Both the position numbers and the translations under genes were made by a program. A stretch of DNA of 64,000 bases from the NCBI GenBank assembly GCA_963704325.1, contig OY969885.1:76707-140706 (forward strand), read 5' to 3'. A model generated the notes under the pieces. It searched no databases and was not told the DNA's origin. It saw only the letters and a list, made by a program, of their open reading frames with translations. This document shows, piece after piece, positions 436-8,052 of the stretch (position 1 is its first letter; each line of letters starts with the position of its first letter). This DNA comes from an uncultured Chloroflexia bacterium (GTDB taxonomy: Bacteria; Chloroflexota; Limnocylindria; Limnocylindrales; CSP1-4).

Positions 436-3048
436 CTAGACCTCGGCCGGCTCCGCGTTCTCGGGTGACTTCGCCTGGTGGCGTTGCATGGCTGCCTTGC
501 GCGAGAGGTTGACCCTCCCCTGCCGGTCAACCTCGACCACGACGACCATGATCTCGTCGCCGACTGAGACCACGTCCTCCACGGTGGGCACGTGGTAGTC
601 GGCCAGCTCGCCGATGCGCACGAGACCTTCCTTGCCGGGCAGGATCTCGACGAACGCGCCGAAGGTCATGATCCGGGTCACCTTGCCCAGGTACAGACCG
701 CCGACCTCGACCTCACGAGTGATCCCTTCGATCATCGCGATGGCCGCACGCGACTTGTCGGCGTCGATCGCTGCGATCTCGACCGTGCCGTCGTCCTCGA
801 CGTTGATCTCTGTGCCGGTGTCCTCCTGGATCTTGCGGATCGTGGCGCCGCCCTTGCCGATGATGTCGCGGATCTTCTCCGGGTTGATCTTGATCGTGGT
901 GATGCGCGGCGCGAATGCCGACATCTCCTCACGGGCGCTGGGCAGAACCTCGGTCATCTTGTCCAGGATGAACAGCCGCGCGACGCGCGCCTTTTCCAGC
1001 CCGTCGCGAATGACCTGCTCGTTGATGCCCTCGACCTTGATGTCCATCTGGACGGCGGTGATGCCTTCGCTCGTGCCGGTCACCTTGAAGTCCATGTCAC
1101 CGAAGGAGTCTTCCTTGCCCAGGATGTCGGTCAGCACGGCGAACTTGCCGTCACTGCCTGACACGAGGCCCATTGCCGCGCCGGCAACCGGCGCCTTGAT
1201 CGGCACGCCGGCGTCCATCAGCGCGAGCGTCGAGCCGCACGTTGAGGCCATGGACGTCGAGCCGTTCGAGGTAACAGCCTCCGACACCAGCCGGATGACG
1301 TAAGGGAACTCCTCCGACGATGGCAGGACCGGCAGCAGCGCTCGCTCCGCGAGCGCGCCGTGGCCGATGTCGCGCCGCGAGGGCCCGCGCATCGGCTTGT
1401 TCTCACCCGTCGAGTACGGCGGGAAGTTGTAGTGATGGATGTATCGCTTGGACTCGTCGGGGCTGATCGTGTCGATGCGCTGGACGTCGGACGACGGTCC
1501 GAGTGTCGCGACAGTCAGCACCTGGGTCTGGCCGCGCGTGAACAGGGCGGAGCCGTGCGCGCGCGGCAGGAGGCCCGTCTCGACCGAGATCGGTCGGATG
1601 GTGTCGAGATCGCGGCCGTCCATGCGGATCCCCTCAGTGAGCACCAGCTCGCGCACGACCTTCTTCATCAGCAGGCCGGACAGGCCCTTCGAGAAGCGGG
1701 CCACCTTGCGCGCGGCGTCGATCTGCTTGGACGAATCGTCCGCGGAGGTGCCGTTGCGCAGCGAGCGGATCGCGTTGGCGACGGTCTCCTTGTACAGCTT
1801 GATTCGGTCGGGCAGGTCGCTGCCCAGGCGGATGAGCAATTGCGCGGTTGCCTCGGCGTCCGGCAGTGCGCGGTGGTTTGGCTCCACCTCGAGCGCGAAG
1901 AAGCGGGCCAGATCACCCAGTTTCAGGTCGCTGTCCGGGTGGGCCTCGCGCGCGATGACCAGCGTGTCCAGGTAGCGTCCCTGCTCGATCTTTTCGCCGG
2001 ACTCCAGCGCCGCCTCAATGAAGCCGATGTCGAAGCCCACGTTGTGGCCCACCAGCAGGGCGTCGCCTGCCCAGTCCATGAACGTCCGCGCGGCCTCCGC
2101 CGGAGTCGGCGCACCGGCCACGTCCTGGTCGGTGATGCCGTGCAGCTGGCGGCCGACGATCGGTCCGCCCGGATTGACCAGCGTTGACCAGCGATCCTCG
2201 ATCTGGCCGCGGACGACCTTCACGGCACCGATCTCGACCAGTGAACCCTGCTTGACGTCGCGGCTGGTTGTCTCGACGTCGAACACGACAAGCGGGCGAT
2301 CGCCCTTCATTGCATCGACGAGGTCGAGCACAGACTGGACGCTCGGCTCGATGTACGGCACGCGCTTGGCCTTGCCCACCTTCTCGCGCAGCTGCTCCTG
2401 CAGCTCGACGATCGGGACCAGGGAGCGGTGGCCGAACATGATCGCCTCGGCCATGACGGCCTCAGGCACGATCTTGGCGCCGGCCTCGACCATCATGATC
2501 GCGTCGCGCGTGCCGGAGACGACCAGGTCGATCTCCGAATCGGCCAGCTGGCTGTTGGTCGGGTTGAGCACGAGCTCACCGTTGATGCGGCCCACGCGGA
2601 CCGAAGCAACGGGGCCGGCGAACGGGATCTCGCTGATAGTCAGCGCGGCCGACGCGGCGATGGTGCCCAGGATGTCCGGATCGTTCTCCTGGTCGGTCGA
2701 CATGACCGTCAGCACGATCTGGACGTCGTCCTTGTAGCCCTCAGGGAAAAGCGGCCTGATCGGCCGGTCGGTCAGGCGTGCGGCCAGGATGGCTGCCTCT
2801 GACGGACGTGATTCGCGCTTGATGAAGCCGCCCGGGATCTTGCCCGCGGCATACATGCGCTCCTCGAACTCGATCGTCATCGGGAAGAAGTCGAGTCCCT
2901 GGCGCGGCTCGGACCGATTGGCCGTGCCGAGCAGCATTGTGTCGCCGTAGCGAATCGTGACGGATCCACCCGCGAGCAGGGCAAGCCTGCCCGTCTCGAT
3001 GGTGAGGGTGCGACCGGCGATCTCGGTCGTGAGCGTTGTGACTGGCAT
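436..3048 (-). CDS. pnp: Polyribonucleotide nucleotidyltransferase (PNPase) with an inserted DEDDh exonuclease domain
   Basis: 870-aa ORF with two RNase PH halves, a KH domain (IKINPEKIRDIIGKGGATIRKI) and an S1 domain (GKVTRIMTFGAFVEI). It sits immediately downstream of rpsO as in most bacteria. It is about 160 aa longer than typical PNPases because of the insert at aa ~252-410. Confidence 0.95.
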   Translation of the reverse strand: MPVTTLTTEIAGRTLTIETGRLALLAGGSVTIRYGDTMLLGTANRSEPRQGLDFFPMTIEFEERMYAAGKIPGGFIKRESRPSEAAILAARLTDRPIRPLFPEGYKDDVQIVLTVMSTDQENDPDILGTIAASAALTISEIPFAGPVASVRVGRINGELVLNPTNSQLADSEIDLVVSGTRDAIMMVEAGAKIVPEAVMAEAIMFGHRSLVPIVELQEQLREKVGKAKRVPYIEPSVQSVLDLVDAMKGDRPLVVFDVETTSRDVKQGSLVEIGAVKVVRGQIEDRWSTLVNPGGPIVGRQLHGITDQDVAGAPTPAEAARTFMDWAGDALLVGHNVGFDIGFIEAALESGEKIEQGRYLDTLVIAREAHPDSDLKLGDLARFFALEVEPNHRALPDAEATAQLLIRLGSDLPDRIKLYKETVANAIRSLRNGTSADDSSKQIDAARKVARFSKGLSGLLMKKVVRELVLTEGIRMDGRDLDTIRPISVETGLLPRAHGSALFTRGQTQVLTVATLGPSSDVQRIDTISPDESKRYIHHYNFPPYSTGENKPMRGPSRRDIGHGALAERALLPVLPSSEEFPYVIRLVSEAVTSNGSTSMASTCGSTLALMDAGVPIKAPVAGAAMGLVSGSDGKFAVLTDILGKEDSFGDMDFKVTGTSEGITAVQMDIKVEGINEQVIRDGLEKARVARLFILDKMTEVLPSAREEMSAFAPRITTIKINPEKIRDIIGKGGATIRKIQEDTGTEINVEDDGTVEIAAIDADKSRAAIAMIEGITREVEVGGLYLGKVTRIMTFGAFVEILPGKEGLVRIGELADYHVPTVEDVVSVGDEIMVVVVEVDRQGRVNLSRKAAMQRHQAKSPENAEPAEV
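1819..2295 (-). other. DnaQ/RNase T-like DEDDh 3'-5' exonuclease domain embedded in PNPase
   Basis: Exo I is VVFDVETTS, Exo II is LLVGHNVGFDIGF, and Exo III is NHRALPDAEATAQLL (H-x4-D). It is in frame with no stops, and PNPase helical-domain sequence flanks it on both sides. Confidence 0.8.
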
Positions 3049-3050
3049 CA

Positions 3051-3070
3051 GTCCTCCACTTAGGGAGGAC
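3051..3070 (-). promoter_or_regulatory. Hairpin sequestering the pnp Shine-Dalgarno in the 30-nt rpsO-pnp spacer
   Basis: The minus-strand RNA reads GUCCUCC-CUAAGU-GGAGGAC-UG-AUG. The 7-bp stem pairs the only SD-like element (GGAGGA) with an upstream anti-SD. Confidence 0.3.
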
Positions 3071-3078
3071 GGGTTTGC

Positions 3079-3363
3079 TTAGCGGCGCAGTCCCAGGCTG
3101 CCGATAACGGCGCGGTAGCGGGCGTTGTCCTTGCGCATCAGATACGCAAGCAGCCGCCGCCGCTGCCCGACGAGCTTGAGCAGCCCTCGACGAGAGTGAT
3201 TGTCCTTGGGGAAGCTGCGCAGATGCTCGGTCAGTCCCTTGATCCGCTCCGTGAGGAGCGCGATCTGGACCTCCGGCGATCCTGTATCACCTTCCGATCG
3301 GGCGTAGTCCGCCACGATCCCTTCCTTGGTCTCCCGCGCCAGGGGCACCCGTTCCTCCAACAT
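3079..3363 (-). CDS. rpsO: 30S ribosomal protein S15
   Basis: Contains [24 protein letters not shown]...[20 protein letters not shown], a clear S15 signature. An alternative GTG start at 3348 is preceded by GGAGGA. Confidence 0.95.
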
Positions 3364-3435
3364 ATTCCTTGTCTTCTAGATCCGCGGAAGTCTAACAGTC
3401 ATCTGCCATTGACGCCGTGCTACCTTCCGCTGCGT

Positions 3436-4839
3436 ATGACGTCCACGGACGAGTCGGCCGCGTCTCGACGCGCGCTCACGACGTGGCCGCTCACGGGAAG
3501 CGCAGAGTTCGATCGGCTACCGGCGACATGGCGTGCGCGCACGGCGCAGGTGCTCGCAGCCGATTTCCAGCGTCACGTCTGCCAGGCCTGGTTCCCGCGC
3601 ACCGTGGACAGCGCCGCCGGTGGCTTCCTGTGCGATTTCGACCGCCGTTGGCGGCCGATCGGACGACAGGACCGCACGTTGGAATTCCAGGCGCGACAGA
3701 CGCGCTCGGCGGCGCGCATAGGTCGTGCGTTCCCGAAGCAGGCGAGTTGGGTCGAGGTGTCGCAGCACGGCTTCCGCTACCTGATGGAGGTCATGCACGA
3801 TCACGTGGAAGGCGGCTGGTACAACGCCGTCAATCGCGCTGGCGACCCGCTCATCGGCGGCTCGAAGCATGCCCACGGCACGGCCTACCTGATCGGCGGC
3901 CTCGCCTCCCTGCACCGGCTGACTGGTGACCCTGATGTGCTCGAGGCGGCAGTCGAGGCGTTCGAATGGCTGGAAGACACTCTGCACGACCCCGTCCAGG
4001 GCGGATACTTCGGGTGGGCGACCAGGGAAGGCAGGCCAATTCGATCCGTAGAGGACCTGCCCCCCGAAATCGCCGACATGCGCGTAGACCCGCTTGGTCA
4101 TGGCATCGGCTTCAAGGACGCGAACGTCCACTCGGACCTCCTCGACGCCTTCACTCAGCTCTACGCTGCCTGGCCCAACGAGCGCCTGAGATCGCGGATG
4201 GCCGAGGTCTTCGAGCTGGTCACGCGGCGCTTCGTCACTGCCGCCGGTTCCATGCACTACCTGGCTTATTCGGACTTCACGCCTGCGCCCACGCTCGAGC
4301 GATACGGCGACCCGAGTCAGACGGCGCCACGCCTGATCGTCGCCGGAGCGATGCTCGGCGCAGGCTCCGATGACATCCTGAGCCTCGTGCGCAGGATGTC
4401 GGACCACGTCGCCGAAGTTGCGTGGGACAGTGAGCGGGGAGGCTTTCGCGACGCCGGCCCCAGCGCCGCGCCCTTCCACCTCGCGGGACACTCGATGAGC
4501 CTGCCCACCAGGTCCTGGTGGGTGCAGACGGAGGCCATGAGGACGACCCTCCTCGTCGCGGCCATCTCCGACGACCCGGAGCCATACCTGCGCCGCTTCG
4601 ACGCCGCTCTGGAGTTCACGCGACGCGAGCTGTTGGACCACCGCCACGCTGGCTGGTACGCGGCCGCACTCTCCGATCAACCGCGCTGGCCGCCGCGTCC
4701 GCACCGTTCTCGCCGGCACAAGGGCAACATCTGGAAGGACGCGTCACACGAGACGGATTTCTACCTCGCTGCGCTGCGCATCCTGGGTGGAGTGGAGGCG
4801 GACGCAGCCCTGCCAGGCTCGCCAGATGCGGCGCATTAG
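3436..4839 (+). CDS. N-acylglucosamine 2-epimerase (AGE) superfamily protein (alpha/alpha six-hairpin)
   Basis: The ORF track starts at 3196 inside rpsO. The first plausible start is ATG 3436 (MTSTDES...). Motifs such as GGWYNAVNRAGDPL..SKHAHGTAYLIGGLASL and VQGGYFGWATREG resemble AGE/cellobiose-epimerase-type proteins. Confidence 0.7.
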   Translation: MTSTDESAASRRALTTWPLTGSAEFDRLPATWRARTAQVLAADFQRHVCQAWFPRTVDSAAGGFLCDFDRRWRPIGRQDRTLEFQARQTRSAARIGRAFPKQASWVEVSQHGFRYLMEVMHDHVEGGWYNAVNRAGDPLIGGSKHAHGTAYLIGGLASLHRLTGDPDVLEAAVEAFEWLEDTLHDPVQGGYFGWATREGRPIRSVEDLPPEIADMRVDPLGHGIGFKDANVHSDLLDAFTQLYAAWPNERLRSRMAEVFELVTRRFVTAAGSMHYLAYSDFTPAPTLERYGDPSQTAPRLIVAGAMLGAGSDDILSLVRRMSDHVAEVAWDSERGGFRDAGPSAAPFHLAGHSMSLPTRSWWVQTEAMRTTLLVAAISDDPEPYLRRFDAALEFTRRELLDHRHAGWYAAALSDQPRWPPRPHRSRRHKGNIWKDASHETDFYLAALRILGGVEADAALPGSPDAAH

Positions 4840-5354
4840 CCGACCCGGTCATTACGGGTCTGGTTCCAATGGATCGGCATGAGCCGATCGTGATCGTCAA
4901 CTCCCGGTGGCCCCTCCAGCACATCGCGGTCGAGCGTTACCCAGGCATGGCCGCGCAATGCGCCTCCGGGGCGGTCGAACCATTCCGCGCCGATGCGAAG
5001 CTGCATGTCATGTGCGCCGGCATCCAGAAATCGATACATCGACAGGGCGCGCACGTAGCAGGTGTCGCGGCCGCGCAAGCCCGGAAGGCGCAGCCACGGT
5101 TGCCGAAGCCGCGCAATTCGCTGCGCGCCGGCGCGCGAGTCAATGGCGCTGGGCCGGGCCGCACTTCTCAGGCCGCCGAGGAAATCCGTCAGGTGCGTCC
5201 GCTCGACGTTGCCCGACAGGCGGATCACAAACCAGCCGATGCGCAGCGACCAGTAGACGTCAGCCGGCGAGCGATAGGCGTGCGCCAAGCGCAGCGCGGC
5301 GCCCCACGGAGTCCACCACGGCGCAAGTCGGTGGAAGGAGCGGGCCACGATCAC
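4836..5354 (-). CDS. Lasso-peptide B2-like transglutaminase-fold cysteine protease (McjB C-terminal-like)
   Basis: 172 aa. The Cys motif RDTCYVRALSMYRFL and the His motif LRGHAWVTLD have the spacing typical of PF13471-type B2 proteins. The GTG start at 5354 overlaps the upstream GT2 stop as GTGA. Confidence 0.75.
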   Translation of the reverse strand: MIVARSFHRLAPWWTPWGAALRLAHAYRSPADVYWSLRIGWFVIRLSGNVERTHLTDFLGGLRSAARPSAIDSRAGAQRIARLRQPWLRLPGLRGRDTCYVRALSMYRFLDAGAHDMQLRIGAEWFDRPGGALRGHAWVTLDRDVLEGPPGVDDHDRLMPIHWNQTRNDRVG

Positions 5355-7222
5355 CGTGCGCTGGGTAGCTGAGCGTCCGCTGCCCGCCAGCGTTCAATCT
5401 CGCTCGGGCTCCAGAACGTTCGCGCGAAGCCCAGCCGTTGCGCCACGCGCTTGACGAACGTGCCGCGTCGCACGAGGCCCTCGTCGCCCATGGGCCGGAG
5501 CAGGGCCCCGAGTCCCACCGGGCCAAGTGCAAGCCAGTTGCGCAGCTCGTCGAGTGGGCCCCACTCGAGTTCGTCCTCGTAGCGGCGGAAGAACTGCGCG
5601 TAGCCCTTCCCGTAGCTGACCTGCTGCGCCCAGTACGCTCGCCAGCTCTGTCGGTGGCGGTGGTGGACGACAGCCCGCGGTGCGAAGGGAAAAGCGCCGC
5701 CAACGGCGCGCAGCAGGCGGGTGTGGAGATCGGCTCCCTCGTACGAGTCGAAGCGCGCATCAAATCCGCCCACCTCCAGCAGGGCCTGGCGGCGGTACAT
5801 GGCGTTTGAGGTGGGTGCCCATGGGTATCGCTTGTGAGCAAGGTGGCGATCGGCACGCAGCCCGCCGCTCGCGTCGACGAAGCGCGCCGCCGCCGTGGTC
5901 GAGCGATAGCCGATCGTCATACCCGCCGCGCCCAGCGCCGGATGAGCCGCCGTGGTCGTTTCTGCAACGGCTCCGAGCAGTGCCCGCAGCCAACCCCTGC
6001 TGGGGACGCAGTCCGCGTCCGTGAAGGCAATCCAGGTGCCCTGCGCGGACCGGATGCCGGCATTGCGCGAACTGCCTGCCGCGCGTCCCGAGCCCCGACT
6101 TGAGCTGCGCAGCACGGTTGCCCCGGAGCTCGCCGCTATCTCTGCGGAAGCATCGCGATTGCGCTCGTCAACAACCACGAGCACCTCGTAATCCGATCGC
6201 GCCAGGCTCTGTGCAAACAGGGCCGACAGGCAGTCACCCAGCGTGCCGGCGGCGTCGCGGACGGGAATCACGACCGACACGCTCGGCGGCCCGGAAGAAC
6301 GCGGCGCGCTCACGCGCTCGCGTCCCGCCGTGCCTCGTCGAACCCGTGCCAGAAGCTGCGGTCCCACATGGCCAGGTAGGCATCGAACTCGGCTGTGTCG
6401 GAGTCGATCTGCCCCAGCCGCAGCCGAGTCGAAGCTGCCATCGCATTCAATCGCCGCTGGGCGCTGCGATAGCCGCGCTGGACGCGATAGCGCAGGCTCC
6501 AGGTCCAGGAAGTCAGCATGGCGAGCGTAGAGGTGAGCCATTGCCGAGCCGTACTGGCGCGCCTGTGCCCAGAGCTCCGCGTCCGATTCGCGATCCTGGT
6601 GGAAGGCCAGCGCAGCTTCGATCAGCTCGATCCGCGGCCCGAACATGTCACGCACACGGAACGAGAACTCCACGTCTTCGCCTGCCTTGAGCTCCTGTGG
6701 CCACCCACCAACGGCAAGCGCCACGCTACGCCGGACGGCCATGTTGCGCGTGTTCGCGAAGGGCAGCTCGCGAGTTTCCAGCGGGCGCCGGGCGACGTTG
6801 AGCCCGTAGCGAGCCGCGAAACGCTGCGCGGCAGTGCGCGGCGGAAAGCTCGCCAATCCCCCGGCAACGATGTTGATTTCAGGGTCGGCGAAGGGTGCGG
6901 CTATCTCGCGCAGCCAGTTGCGGGCCGGAACGCAGTCGGCATCGAGCAGTGCCAGCACTTCGCCGCGCGCCTCATGCATGCCTAAATTCCTGGCCGCGGA
7001 GGGACCGCGCTCGTTCTCCTGCAGCACGCGCAGCCCCGGTATGGCGGCGCCCTGGGCAAGCTCGCGGCTGCCGTCTGTCGAGCCGTTGTCCACGATCAGG
7101 TATTCGGCCGCGGCGCCGCTCAACGGTCGCTGGGCGGCGAGCGCGGCGAGCAGGGCGGGCAGAGTACGCATCGCGTTGAGCATCGGCACGATGACAGAGA
7201 CGGCCGGCTGCGGGCCGATCAC
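5351..7222 (-). CDS. Glycosyltransferase family 2, two GT-A modules in one uninterrupted ORF (probably two genes, see findings)
   Basis: Module 1 has VSVIVPMLNA...YLIVDNGSTDGS...LDADC. Module 2 has VSVVIPVRDA...TDADC. The start was moved from 7315 to GTG 7222, which overlaps the kinase stop as GTGA. Third-position GC indicates a frame switch near 6495-6520 and an internal GTGA junction at 6310-6313. Confidence 0.7.
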   Translation of the reverse strand: MIGPQPAVSVIVPMLNAMRTLPALLAALAAQRPLSGAAAEYLIVDNGSTDGSRELAQGAAIPGLRVLQENERGPSAARNLGMHEARGEVLALLDADCVPARNWLREIAAPFADPEINIVAGGLASFPPRTAAQRFAARYGLNVARRPLETRELPFANTRNMAVRRSVALAVGGWPQELKAGEDVEFSFRVRDMFGPRIELIEAALAFHQDRESDAELWAQARQYGSAMAHLYARHADFLDLEPALSRPARLSQRPAAIECDGSFDSAAAGADRLRHSRVRCLPGHVGPQLLARVRRGTAGRERVSAPRSSGPPSVSVVIPVRDAAGTLGDCLSALFAQSLARSDYEVLVVVDERNRDASAEIAASSGATVLRSSSRGSGRAAGSSRNAGIRSAQGTWIAFTDADCVPSRGWLRALLGAVAETTTAAHPALGAAGMTIGYRSTTAAARFVDASGGLRADRHLAHKRYPWAPTSNAMYRRQALLEVGGFDARFDSYEGADLHTRLLRAVGGAFPFAPRAVVHHRHRQSWRAYWAQQVSYGKGYAQFFRRYEDELEWGPLDELRNWLALGPVGLGALLRPMGDEGLVRRGTFVKRVAQRLGFARTFWSPSEIERWRAADAQLPSAR

Positions 7223-8052
7223 GCGAGGAGCTCGTGCAGTGAGTCGAGGTAAGCGGGATTCGCGTATGCGTCGTTGTAGAGGGCGACTCGGTAGCCGGTC
7301 GCCTGCTCGGCACAACCCACGATGGCCTGGATGATCGATGTGGCCAGGCTTCGGTCGCTCGGAATGACCGTCTGGCGCATGAGCGCCGCGATGCGCTCCG
7401 GACGTTCCAGTGGGGTAACGGCGACCCCTCCGCGCCCACCGCGCCGCTCGAGCTCGAGCAGCACCACCGGTTCCATCGTGAGCGCGCTGCCGTGGGGCCA
7501 GAGCGTCCCGATCGGCATTCTCCGCTTGGGGGTCCAGGCGGAGTATTCCGGCAACGCGGCAACCGCTTGAAGCTCGGGAAACCAGGTAGCGGCTGCCGGG
7601 TCGATGTTCATGAACGAAGTCAGGCCGGATACGCGCCGCGGGCCGTTCATGGCCAGCAGCAGCTTGTCGTCGCCGAGCGAGCGCCAGCCGCGGCGCACCA
7701 GGGCGAGGGTGAACGTCGTCTTGCCGCCGCCGCTGGTGGCGCAGACGATTACGCCACGTGAGCCGTCCGTGAGCCCCGCCGCGTGCAGTGGGACCCAGCC
7801 GGAGCGCCGCCAGCCCGTGGTCAGCACCAGACTCAGCGTGTCCTCGATCTCAGGCCAGGCGCCGGCATCCACCAGGGACCCGGGCAAGCGCAGGGTCCAG
7901 CTCTCGCCATGCGCTCCGAAGCTGCCCGACAGCACTCCCCCGCTGCTGGTCGTGGCGCGCAGTCCGCCCGGCGCCGGATCGACCAGCATCTGCGCGCAGA
8001 CCAGGTAGCTTCCAACTGCCGGATCGCCGTCCGTGACGGACTCCACGTGCAC
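7219..8052 (-). CDS. HPr kinase-like (HprK-related) serine kinase; the N-terminus appears to lie in another frame upstream
   Basis: WVPLHAAGLTDGSRGVIVCATSGGGKTTFTLALVRRGWRSLGDDKLLL is a P-loop in the context seen in HprK-related and lasso-tailoring kinases. The GTG start at 8052 has no SD. Codons with coding-like composition continue upstream (8233 to ~8060) in the +1-related frame. Confidence 0.75.
   Translation of the reverse strand: MHVESVTDGDPAVGSYLVCAQMLVDPAPGGLRATTSSGGVLSGSFGAHGESWTLRLPGSLVDAGAWPEIEDTLSLVLTTGWRRSGWVPLHAAGLTDGSRGVIVCATSGGGKTTFTLALVRRGWRSLGDDKLLLAMNGPRRVSGLTSFMNIDPAAATWFPELQAVAALPEYSAWTPKRRMPIGTLWPHGSALTMEPVVLLELERRGGRGGVAVTPLERPERIAALMRQTVIPSDRSLATSIIQAIVGCAEQATGYRVALYNDAYANPAYLDSLHELLA

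Follow-up and report, generated by a model that had tools for sequence, protein, structure and literature searches.

The window, a 64,000-nucleotide stretch of contig OY969885.1 from an uncultured bacterium of the Limnocylindria (Chloroflexota), carries the gene pnp on its minus strand, 30 nt downstream of rpsO. The 870-aa product of this open reading frame (ORF) is a housekeeping, rpsO-linked polynucleotide phosphorylase (PNPase) with a complete DEDDh exonuclease domain of ~150 residues nested in its all-alpha linker. The features of the locus are given below in window coordinates, each followed by the evidence that defines it; PH1 and PH2 denote the first and second RNase PH-like cores, and AF2 denotes AlphaFold2.

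436..3048, minus strand: pnp ORF, 870 aa, encoding PH1, a split all-alpha domain with a nested DEDDh domain, PH2, KH, and S1 (ORF list, TIGR03591, and Pfam)
2359..3048, minus strand: PH1, residues ~1-230 (RNase_PH and RNase_PH_C matches; alignment to 5yjj)
2305..2418, minus strand: N-terminal part of the all-alpha linker, helices 211-223 and 238-248 (AF2 secondary structure; the 5yjj alignment stops at residue 246)
1834..2289, minus strand: DEDDh (DnaQ-like) 3'-5' exonuclease domain, residues 254-405 (PF00929, NF005906, 9qpc, Foldseek, and dN/dS)
2266..2283, minus strand: Exo I, FDVETT, residues 256-261, with D257 and E259 (motif and invariance)
2020..2049, minus strand: Exo II, GHNVGFDIGF, residues 334-343, with D340 (motif and invariance)
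1849..1875, minus strand: Exo III, HRALPDAEA, residues 392-400, with H392 and D397 spaced as H-x4-D (motif and invariance)
1633..1833, minus strand: C-terminal part of the all-alpha linker, comprising the end of helix 394-431 and helices 436-450 and 454-472 (AF2, predicted local distance difference test score (pLDDT) ~90; weak PF03726 match)
949..1674, minus strand: PH2, the catalytic RNase PH-like core, residues 459-700, with RRDIGHG, SNGSTSMAS, and GDMDFKV (aligns to 5yjj from residue 315 onward)
727..900, minus strand: KH domain, residues 717-774 (PF00013, KH_1, 2.6e-12)
496..711, minus strand: S1 domain, residues 780-851 (PF00575, 5.9e-16)
3079..3363, minus strand: rpsO, ribosomal protein S15, 30 nt upstream of pnp (ORF list)

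The original prediction, made from the DNA alone, described a PNPase that is normal apart from an in-frame DEDDh domain at 1819..2295, an interval that corresponds on the minus strand to residues 252-410 of the 870-aa ORF. Both halves of this description hold. The fused protein scores 939.5 bits against the NCBIfam model TIGR03591 (cut-off 525), with the match in two stretches broken by the insert, and 935.5 bits against NF008805 (cut-off 471). Pfam recovers two pairs of RNase_PH and RNase_PH_C, a KH_1, and an S1 domain, plus an RNase_T domain between the PH halves. The phosphate and metal residues of PH2 are intact within RRDIGHG, SNGSTSMAS, and GDMDFKV. They comprise R558, R559, H563, S597, T598, S599, D651, D653, and K655, which we take to be the functional residues by equivalence to the E. 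coli enzyme, and all nine are invariant in the second of the two homolog sets described below (124 of 124 sequences).

Canonical bacterial PNPases, represented by the E. coli, Caulobacter, and Staphylococcus enzymes (3cdi, 4am3, and 5yjj), share with the fused protein the order PH1, all-alpha domain, PH2, KH, S1, the FFRR-type loop region, the phosphate and metal residues, and the rpsO-pnp operon. The difference lies in the linker, which spans ~54 residues in those enzymes and ~212 here, the nested DEDDh domain being found only in the fused enzyme. A Foldseek search with the full-length AF2 model returns canonical PNPases as its top matches, with template modeling (TM) scores to target of 0.7-0.83 and none with the insert, and none of the solved PNPase chains matched in the Protein Data Bank (PDB) sequence and Foldseek comparisons contains it. 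The gene sits in a core chromosomal region that includes nusA, infB, smc, recG, priA, and ileS besides rpsO-pnp, and in all 17 related loci the fused pnp is immediately preceded by an S15 ortholog. Its housekeeping status follows from this invariant rpsO linkage, from the nusA-infB ... rpsO-pnp neighborhood, and from a TIGR03591 score above the equivalog cut-off.

The insert is recognized as a DEDD-type exonuclease by Pfam and NCBIfam models. PF00929 (RNase_T) covers residues 254-405 over its full profile (1-164 of 164) with an E-value of 4.4e-26 and 92.8 bits, far above the gathering cut-off of 24. The best NCBIfam families are the DEDD exonuclease domain-containing protein NF005906 (1e-42), PolC, DinG-related, and dnaq; the DEDD-exonuclease and PolC/DinG exonuclease models score between 1e-42 and 1e-27, and TIGR00573 (dnaq) yields 82-86 bits against a cut-off of 71.5. 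The three exonuclease motifs are intact and in order, as predicted: D257-x-E259 in Exo I, D340 in Exo II, and H392-x4-D397 in Exo III, the H-x4-D spacing of the last assigning the domain to the DEDDh subtype. Its metal-binding carboxylates and its general-base histidine are all in place. In HMMER alignments to structures, these motifs coincide with the catalytic motifs of PolC (9qpc, 2e-21; 2p1j, 4e-20) and of Staphylococcus aureus DinG (8zef), which bears out the predicted alignment of the catalytic residues.

Structural modeling gives the same assignment. A separate model of residues 232-472 has a pLDDT of 88.5 and a predicted TM score (pTM) of 0.83 and adopts an RNase H-like alpha/beta fold that superposes on 2ido, 8h2f, and 4fzx with TM scores to target of 0.78-0.81 and root-mean-square deviations (RMSD) of 2.2-3.0 A. 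The strongest Foldseek matches are S. aureus DinG (3.7e-11) and PolC (4e-11, RMSD 2.2 A), with E. coli epsilon at a TM score to target of 0.78-0.80; CRISPR-associated DnaQ, ExoX, and Cas2-DEDDh are further matches. RNase T (~2e-6) and Orn/REXO2 (~1e-5) are far weaker fold matches than DinG and PolC (~4e-11), and no RNase T or Orn model appears among the 25 best NCBIfam families listed for the insert. Features of Rrp6 and RNase D are likewise missing: Exo III reads H-x4-D, not Y-x3-D, and Pfam finds no HRDC or DNA_pol_A_exo1 match in the fused protein. Judged by these profiles and motifs, the insert falls outside the RNase T/Orn subfamilies and outside the DEDDy Rrp6/RNase D group.

The location of the domain is the one point on which the original prediction needs correcting, as it had been placed between the first PH domain and the helical linker. 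Residues 7-246 align with residues 21-260 of the PNPase structure 5yjj and residues 459-855 with 315-710, so that the ~212 residues from 247 to 458 stand where solved PNPases have ~54 residues of all-alpha linker. In the models, helices 211-223 and 238-248 come first, followed by the exonuclease fold of alpha/beta type (253-383), then a long helix with its start at Exo III (394-431), and last helices 436-450 and 454-472, which lead into PH2. Because residues 247-458 replace those ~54 linker residues and helices flank the insert on both sides, alignment and models place the DEDDh domain inside the helical linker rather than ahead of it. The Pfam model of the PNPase helical domain (PF03726) gives a partial, sub-threshold match at residues 459-480 (18.2 bits versus 24.6) that covers profile positions 60-81 of 81, its last quarter. 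A contiguous all-alpha linker of the PNPase type is thus absent by PF03726 and AF2, the DEDDh domain splitting the helices. The full-length AF2 model has a pTM of 0.68, and its insert region lies mostly at pLDDT 80-95. The exonuclease domain of PolC is likewise inserted within another domain.

Conservation was assessed in the best 120 homologs of the fused protein (90%-identity clusters), which represent a first subfamily, in a second set that stands for a more divergent subfamily, and in a scan of one genome per GTDB species searched with an alignment of the insert. The five DEDDh residues D257, E259, D340, H392, and D397 are invariant in 121 of 121 sequences of the first subfamily, 124 of 124 of the second set, and 17 of 17 genomes; N336 of Exo II is N or S across the sets. 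Mean column entropy is 0.73 in the DEDDh domain, 0.33-0.38 in the PH cores, and ~1.4 in the two linker segments that flank the insert, with S1 the most conserved region (0.16) and residues 231-253 the most variable stretch (1.36; dN/dS 0.3 to >1). The C-terminal linker segment is also variable in sequence by both entropy and dN/dS. Calculated by the Nei-Gojobori method on the less saturated pairs, dN/dS is 0.12-0.17 for the DEDDh domain, 0.08-0.32 for the PH cores, and 0.3 to >1 for the linkers. The insert is under selection about as strong as that on the catalytic core, and the tethers are free to vary. Because the dN/dS of the insert resembles that of the PH cores and the linkers are relaxed, the pattern is consistent with an active enzyme module on flexible tethers and speaks against a decayed or purely structural domain.

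These values bear directly on whether the insert might be a non-catalytic module that gates access of phosphate or nucleoside diphosphates, binds RNA, or docks a partner, its nuclease chemistry being irrelevant. Such a role would suit its location, as it takes the place of part of a domain believed to control access of inorganic phosphate (Pi) and nucleoside diphosphate (NDP) (PMC6181284), and the variable flanking helices are what a scaffold would show. Yet the catalytic residues stay invariant in ~260 sequences from subfamilies that are only ~42-48% identical in the insert, whereas decayed DEDD domains normally lose them, and the dN/dS of the insert is that of a constrained domain. We therefore regard a non-catalytic insert as highly improbable.

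The fusion is conserved across the class Limnocylindria. The best 120 homologs are 78-94% identical to the window protein and 854-872 aa long, save for the 825-aa P0094, and in all of them PF00929 accompanies the PNPase domains; the named members are metagenome-assembled genomes (MAGs) of Candidatus Limnocylindria or Limnocylindrales. To our knowledge, this lineage has few or no cultured members. In total, the fusion is present in at least 240 distinct protein clusters at 90% identity, in two subfamilies that are ~62% identical to each other, and nearly all named ones are Candidatus Limnocylindria. Across them, orthologs are 62-94% identical along their full length. In the genome scan, at least 17 species encode the fused protein as one uninterrupted alignment with the same junctions, contigs of more than 1 Mb among them. 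L017, the most divergent of the 17 (62% identity overall, 42% in the insert), stands for the second large subfamily, which comprises at least 120 further clusters that are 85-96% identical to L017 and have an identical domain set. Between the subfamilies, the inserts are ~42-48% identical. P0127 represents a third branch and bears the name Candidatus Limnocylindrus.

This distribution also settles whether the fusion could be an artefact, be it of chimeric assembly, of a mis-joined ORF, or of a recent and inconsequential mobile insertion. Many database entries for the fused gene are fragmentary or frameshifted, and a few contigs are binned to unrelated phyla, as an artefact might produce. Against this, the frame is uninterrupted, with the same junctions, in 17 independent reference genomes that include those contigs of more than 1 Mb; the protein recurs in at least 240 clusters; guanine-plus-cytosine content is flat along the fused gene; and the insert is under purifying selection. 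An artefactual origin can be given virtually no credence.

The fragmentary public entries often turn into an R/P/A-rich out-of-frame translation (P0121, P0125, P0130, P0138, P0148, and P0290-P0313), often on contigs of 100 kb to 1.4 Mb. They suggest indel errors in MAG assembly, yielding spurious stand-alone "3'-5' exonuclease" annotations. Several candidates were set aside for similar reasons. P0121, P0125, P0130, P0141, and others, considered as stand-alone insert donors or split forms, turned out to be pieces of the fused gene or frameshift chimeras derived from it. P0138, P0148, P0188, P0213, P0173, and P0240 (40-48% identity), considered as distant fused lineages, contain R/P/A-rich frameshifted stretches and reflect errors of sequencing or assembly. 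In L031, L042, and L070, the extended alignments (28-30% identity) are weak and were treated as spurious. A homolog search with the insert only proved unsuitable for counting the family, since it returned 30 short fragments and zero full-length proteins.

Fused pnp genes also occur under the labels Patescibacteria, Verrucomicrobiia, Polarisedimenticolia, or Zixibacteria (L008, L009, and L014; P0311 and P0354). The contigs of L008, L009, and L014 are short, at 2-16 kb; their fused proteins share 65-74% identity with that of the window, and rpsO lies upstream in each. These carriers assigned to other phyla look like misbinned Limnocylindria contigs. Independent fusions in other phyla were also considered and rejected: from L018 on, the matches listed contain only PolC-like and other free DEDD domains of Firmicutes and Actinobacteria, within a search whose family-specific patterns would miss other DEDD lineages.

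To trace the ancestry of the insert, 1.84 billion representative proteins were searched exhaustively by HMMER with the insert alone, which gave 34 matches at E <= 1e-30. The top matches are mostly fragments of fused PNPases. The nearest independent relatives, 44-49% identical, are the N-terminal DEDDh domains of DEDD + GIY-YIG (Cho-like) proteins (e.g., from the actinobacterium Longispora), DEDD-DinG helicases, and PolC. Because these are its closest kin, the donor of the insert was, on the sequence comparison, a DNA-side DnaQ-like domain and not an RNase T/Orn-type RNase. The exonuclease domains of PolC, Pol III epsilon, Gram-positive DinG, and Cho-like DEDD-GIY-YIG proteins share with the insert the fold, the three motifs, and the H-x4-D spacing, at 26-49% identity and RMSD values of 2.2-3.0 A over ~170 columns. 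Their hosts differ, being a polymerase, a helicase, or a GIY-YIG nuclease there and an RNA phosphorylase here. Some relatives of the insert carry repeated DEDD domains: P0129 (1045 aa) has three RNase_T domains with GIY-YIG and UVR, P0140 (1631 aa) is a PolC-like polymerase with two exonuclease domains, and P0144 (618 aa) has two RNase_T domains with BRCT.

The motifs, their conservation, and the selection on the insert show that one housekeeping polypeptide holds two intact, conserved predicted 3'-5' exonuclease active sites of different chemistry, the second tethered in the helical domain. The reading we favor, at a probability of roughly 0.55, is that the DEDDh site hydrolyzes, independently of phosphate, those RNA 3' ends on which the threaded phosphorolytic site performs poorly. 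In the PNPase trimer, every protomer would then bear two 3'-5' exonuclease sites. The PH2 site would be phosphate-dependent, with RNA threaded via the KH/S1 cap and the central channel. The DEDDh site would catalyze phosphate-independent, metal-dependent hydrolysis and would sit on the helical domain, which lies along the side of the ring where the active site is located and NDP/Pi gain access. In human PNPase, the helical domain contacts RNA near the active site (PMC12685370). The hydrolytic site would take RNA 3' ends that are poorly served by the phosphorolytic one, candidate substrates being short limit oligonucleotides leaving the channel, 3' ends that cannot be threaded because they are too short or lie too near a duplex, and any RNA when phosphate is scarce. 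Short oligoribonucleotides are known to be left unprocessed by processive exoribonucleases and to need other enzymes (PMC9779919). A single polypeptide might in this way do work that other organisms split between a PH-ring enzyme and a separate DEDD nuclease. We infer a dual phosphorolytic and hydrolytic mechanism for the fused enzyme.

An RNA substrate for the DEDDh site is plausible because the exonuclease domains of DinG, which are relatives of the insert, can cut RNA: the S. aureus enzyme degrades single-stranded RNA (ssRNA), and that of Bacillus subtilis cuts single-stranded DNA (ssDNA) and the RNA in RNA:DNA hybrids, its preferred substrates, and ssRNA only with Mn2+ (PMC12525004). Several observations weigh against RNA hydrolysis as the function. 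The closest relatives of the insert act on DNA, namely, the PolC/epsilon proofreading domains, DinG, ExoX, Cas2-DEDDh, and the Cho-like DEDD-GIY-YIG proteins at 44-49% identity, and RNase T, Orn, and REXO2 match it much more weakly in Foldseek. Free ssRNA is not cut by B. subtilis DinG with Mg2+ (PMC12525004), and the full-length AF2 model reaches a pLDDT of only 71.

The kinship of the insert with DNA-acting domains nourishes the idea that it is an active 3'-5' DNA exonuclease that gives this PNPase a role in processing or repair of DNA 3' ends or in removal of R-loops and RNA:DNA hybrids, not in bulk RNA decay. In both sequence and fold, its best matches are without exception DEDDh domains that act on DNA (PolC, epsilon, DinG, ExoX, and Cas2-DEDDh), its nearest free-standing relatives are of the repair-type DEDD + GIY-YIG kind, and the preference of B. 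subtilis DinG for ssDNA and hybrids points in this direction as well. Mn-dependent DNA end-processing activities have moreover been reported for Bacillus and mycobacterial PNPases. The host nevertheless is an rpsO-linked RNA-decay enzyme whose KH/S1 RNA-binding domains and phosphorolytic site are intact, and sugar specificity in the DEDDh clade is loose, as the ssRNA activity of S. aureus DinG illustrates (PMC12525004). No DNA-repair gene is co-transcribed with pnp, since its downstream neighbors are convergent and leave it without a co-transcribed partner on the 3' side. A DNA-directed role for the insert is considered unlikely, although it is the foremost of the alternatives.

Hydrolysis of RNA 3' ends, the favored reading, has counterparts in other PNPase and exosome systems. 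The core of the eukaryotic exosome is a ring of PH domains that is paired with Rrp6. In the Caulobacter degradosome, PNPase is physically coupled to RNase D (PMC4245959). In both, a PH ring or PNPase is joined to a hydrolytic 3'-5' exoribonuclease of the DEDD superfamily, which makes them functional analogs of the fused enzyme only. Rrp6 and RNase D are separate DEDDy polypeptides, whereas the DEDDh domain here is covalently nested in the ring subunit, and the assemblies are not homologous. Orn and REXO2, also of the DEDDh type, complete the degradation of short oligonucleotides that remain once PNPase and other processive RNases have acted (PMC9779919 and PMC7261184). Acting downstream of PNPase, they too are functional analogs, but the insert lies outside their subfamily (fold E-value ~1e-5, compared with 4e-11 for DinG/PolC).

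A bolder version of the RNA hydrolysis reading would make the fused enzyme a self-contained, exosome-like machine. Limit oligonucleotides and stalled 3' ends would pass directly from PH2 to the tethered DEDDh site at the face of the helical domain, replacing a separate nanoRNase or RNase T/D-type trimmer in Limnocylindria and making decay partly phosphate-independent. This extension is tentative, and we think it doubtful. If RNA hydrolysis by the DEDDh site is true, the fused enzyme would be the first case in which phosphorolytic and hydrolytic 3'-5' decay are fused in one polypeptide, class-wide and with a second exonuclease site per protomer, and would form a bacterial counterpart, within a single chain, of the pairing of the exosome with Rrp6 and of the degradosome with RNase D. 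It would offer a natural system for asking how two chemistries share substrates and what the poorly understood helical domain does, and it bears on the ways in which Chloroflexota that are abundant in soil and freshwater deal with short RNA fragments or a limited phosphate supply.

The literature and the databases were also checked for this architecture. Full-text literature searches, whose coverage takes in few subscription journals, return no account of a DEDD domain in a PNPase, and solved PNPase structures are without the insert, as stated above. The fusion is, on the other hand, common within Limnocylindria. Its sequences are already in databases by the hundreds under automatic names, and the architecture is apparently uncharacterised. 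These names disagree: NCBI calls the protein polyribonucleotide nucleotidyltransferase (PNPase), and JGI/IMG applies "DNA polymerase III epsilon subunit family exonuclease" to a whole 863-aa protein (P0003, P0005, and many more). Each name captures one part of a two-part protein, so that the fusion also matters for annotation, where one protein carries two conflicting labels.

The rpsO-pnp intergenic region contains a 7-bp hairpin, GTCCTCC-ctaagt-GGAGGAC, at 3051-3070 on the minus strand, 2 nt before the pnp ATG, with its 3' arm forming the Shine-Dalgarno sequence. Most of the related loci L001-L017 likewise have, upstream of pnp, a CCTCC...GGAGG hairpin in which the ribosome-binding Shine-Dalgarno element is sequestered, with varying stem sequences. 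By analogy, the hairpin may serve translational control or autoregulation, reminiscent of the E. coli pnp leader. Past the pnp stop codon by ~35 nt, a strong, GC-rich palindromic hairpin of 13-14 bp at 371-401 is followed by only a weak T tract (minus strand) and is likely the terminator of the rpsO-pnp operon.

rpsO is adjoined by a 547-aa ORF with an N-acetylglucosamine (GlcNAc) 2-epimerase-like domain (3196-4839, plus strand). The usual rpsO neighbors truB and ribF are not immediately adjacent in the window. A nearby 654-aa ORF (5351-7315, minus strand) reads, from its translation alone, like two fused glycosyltransferase modules.

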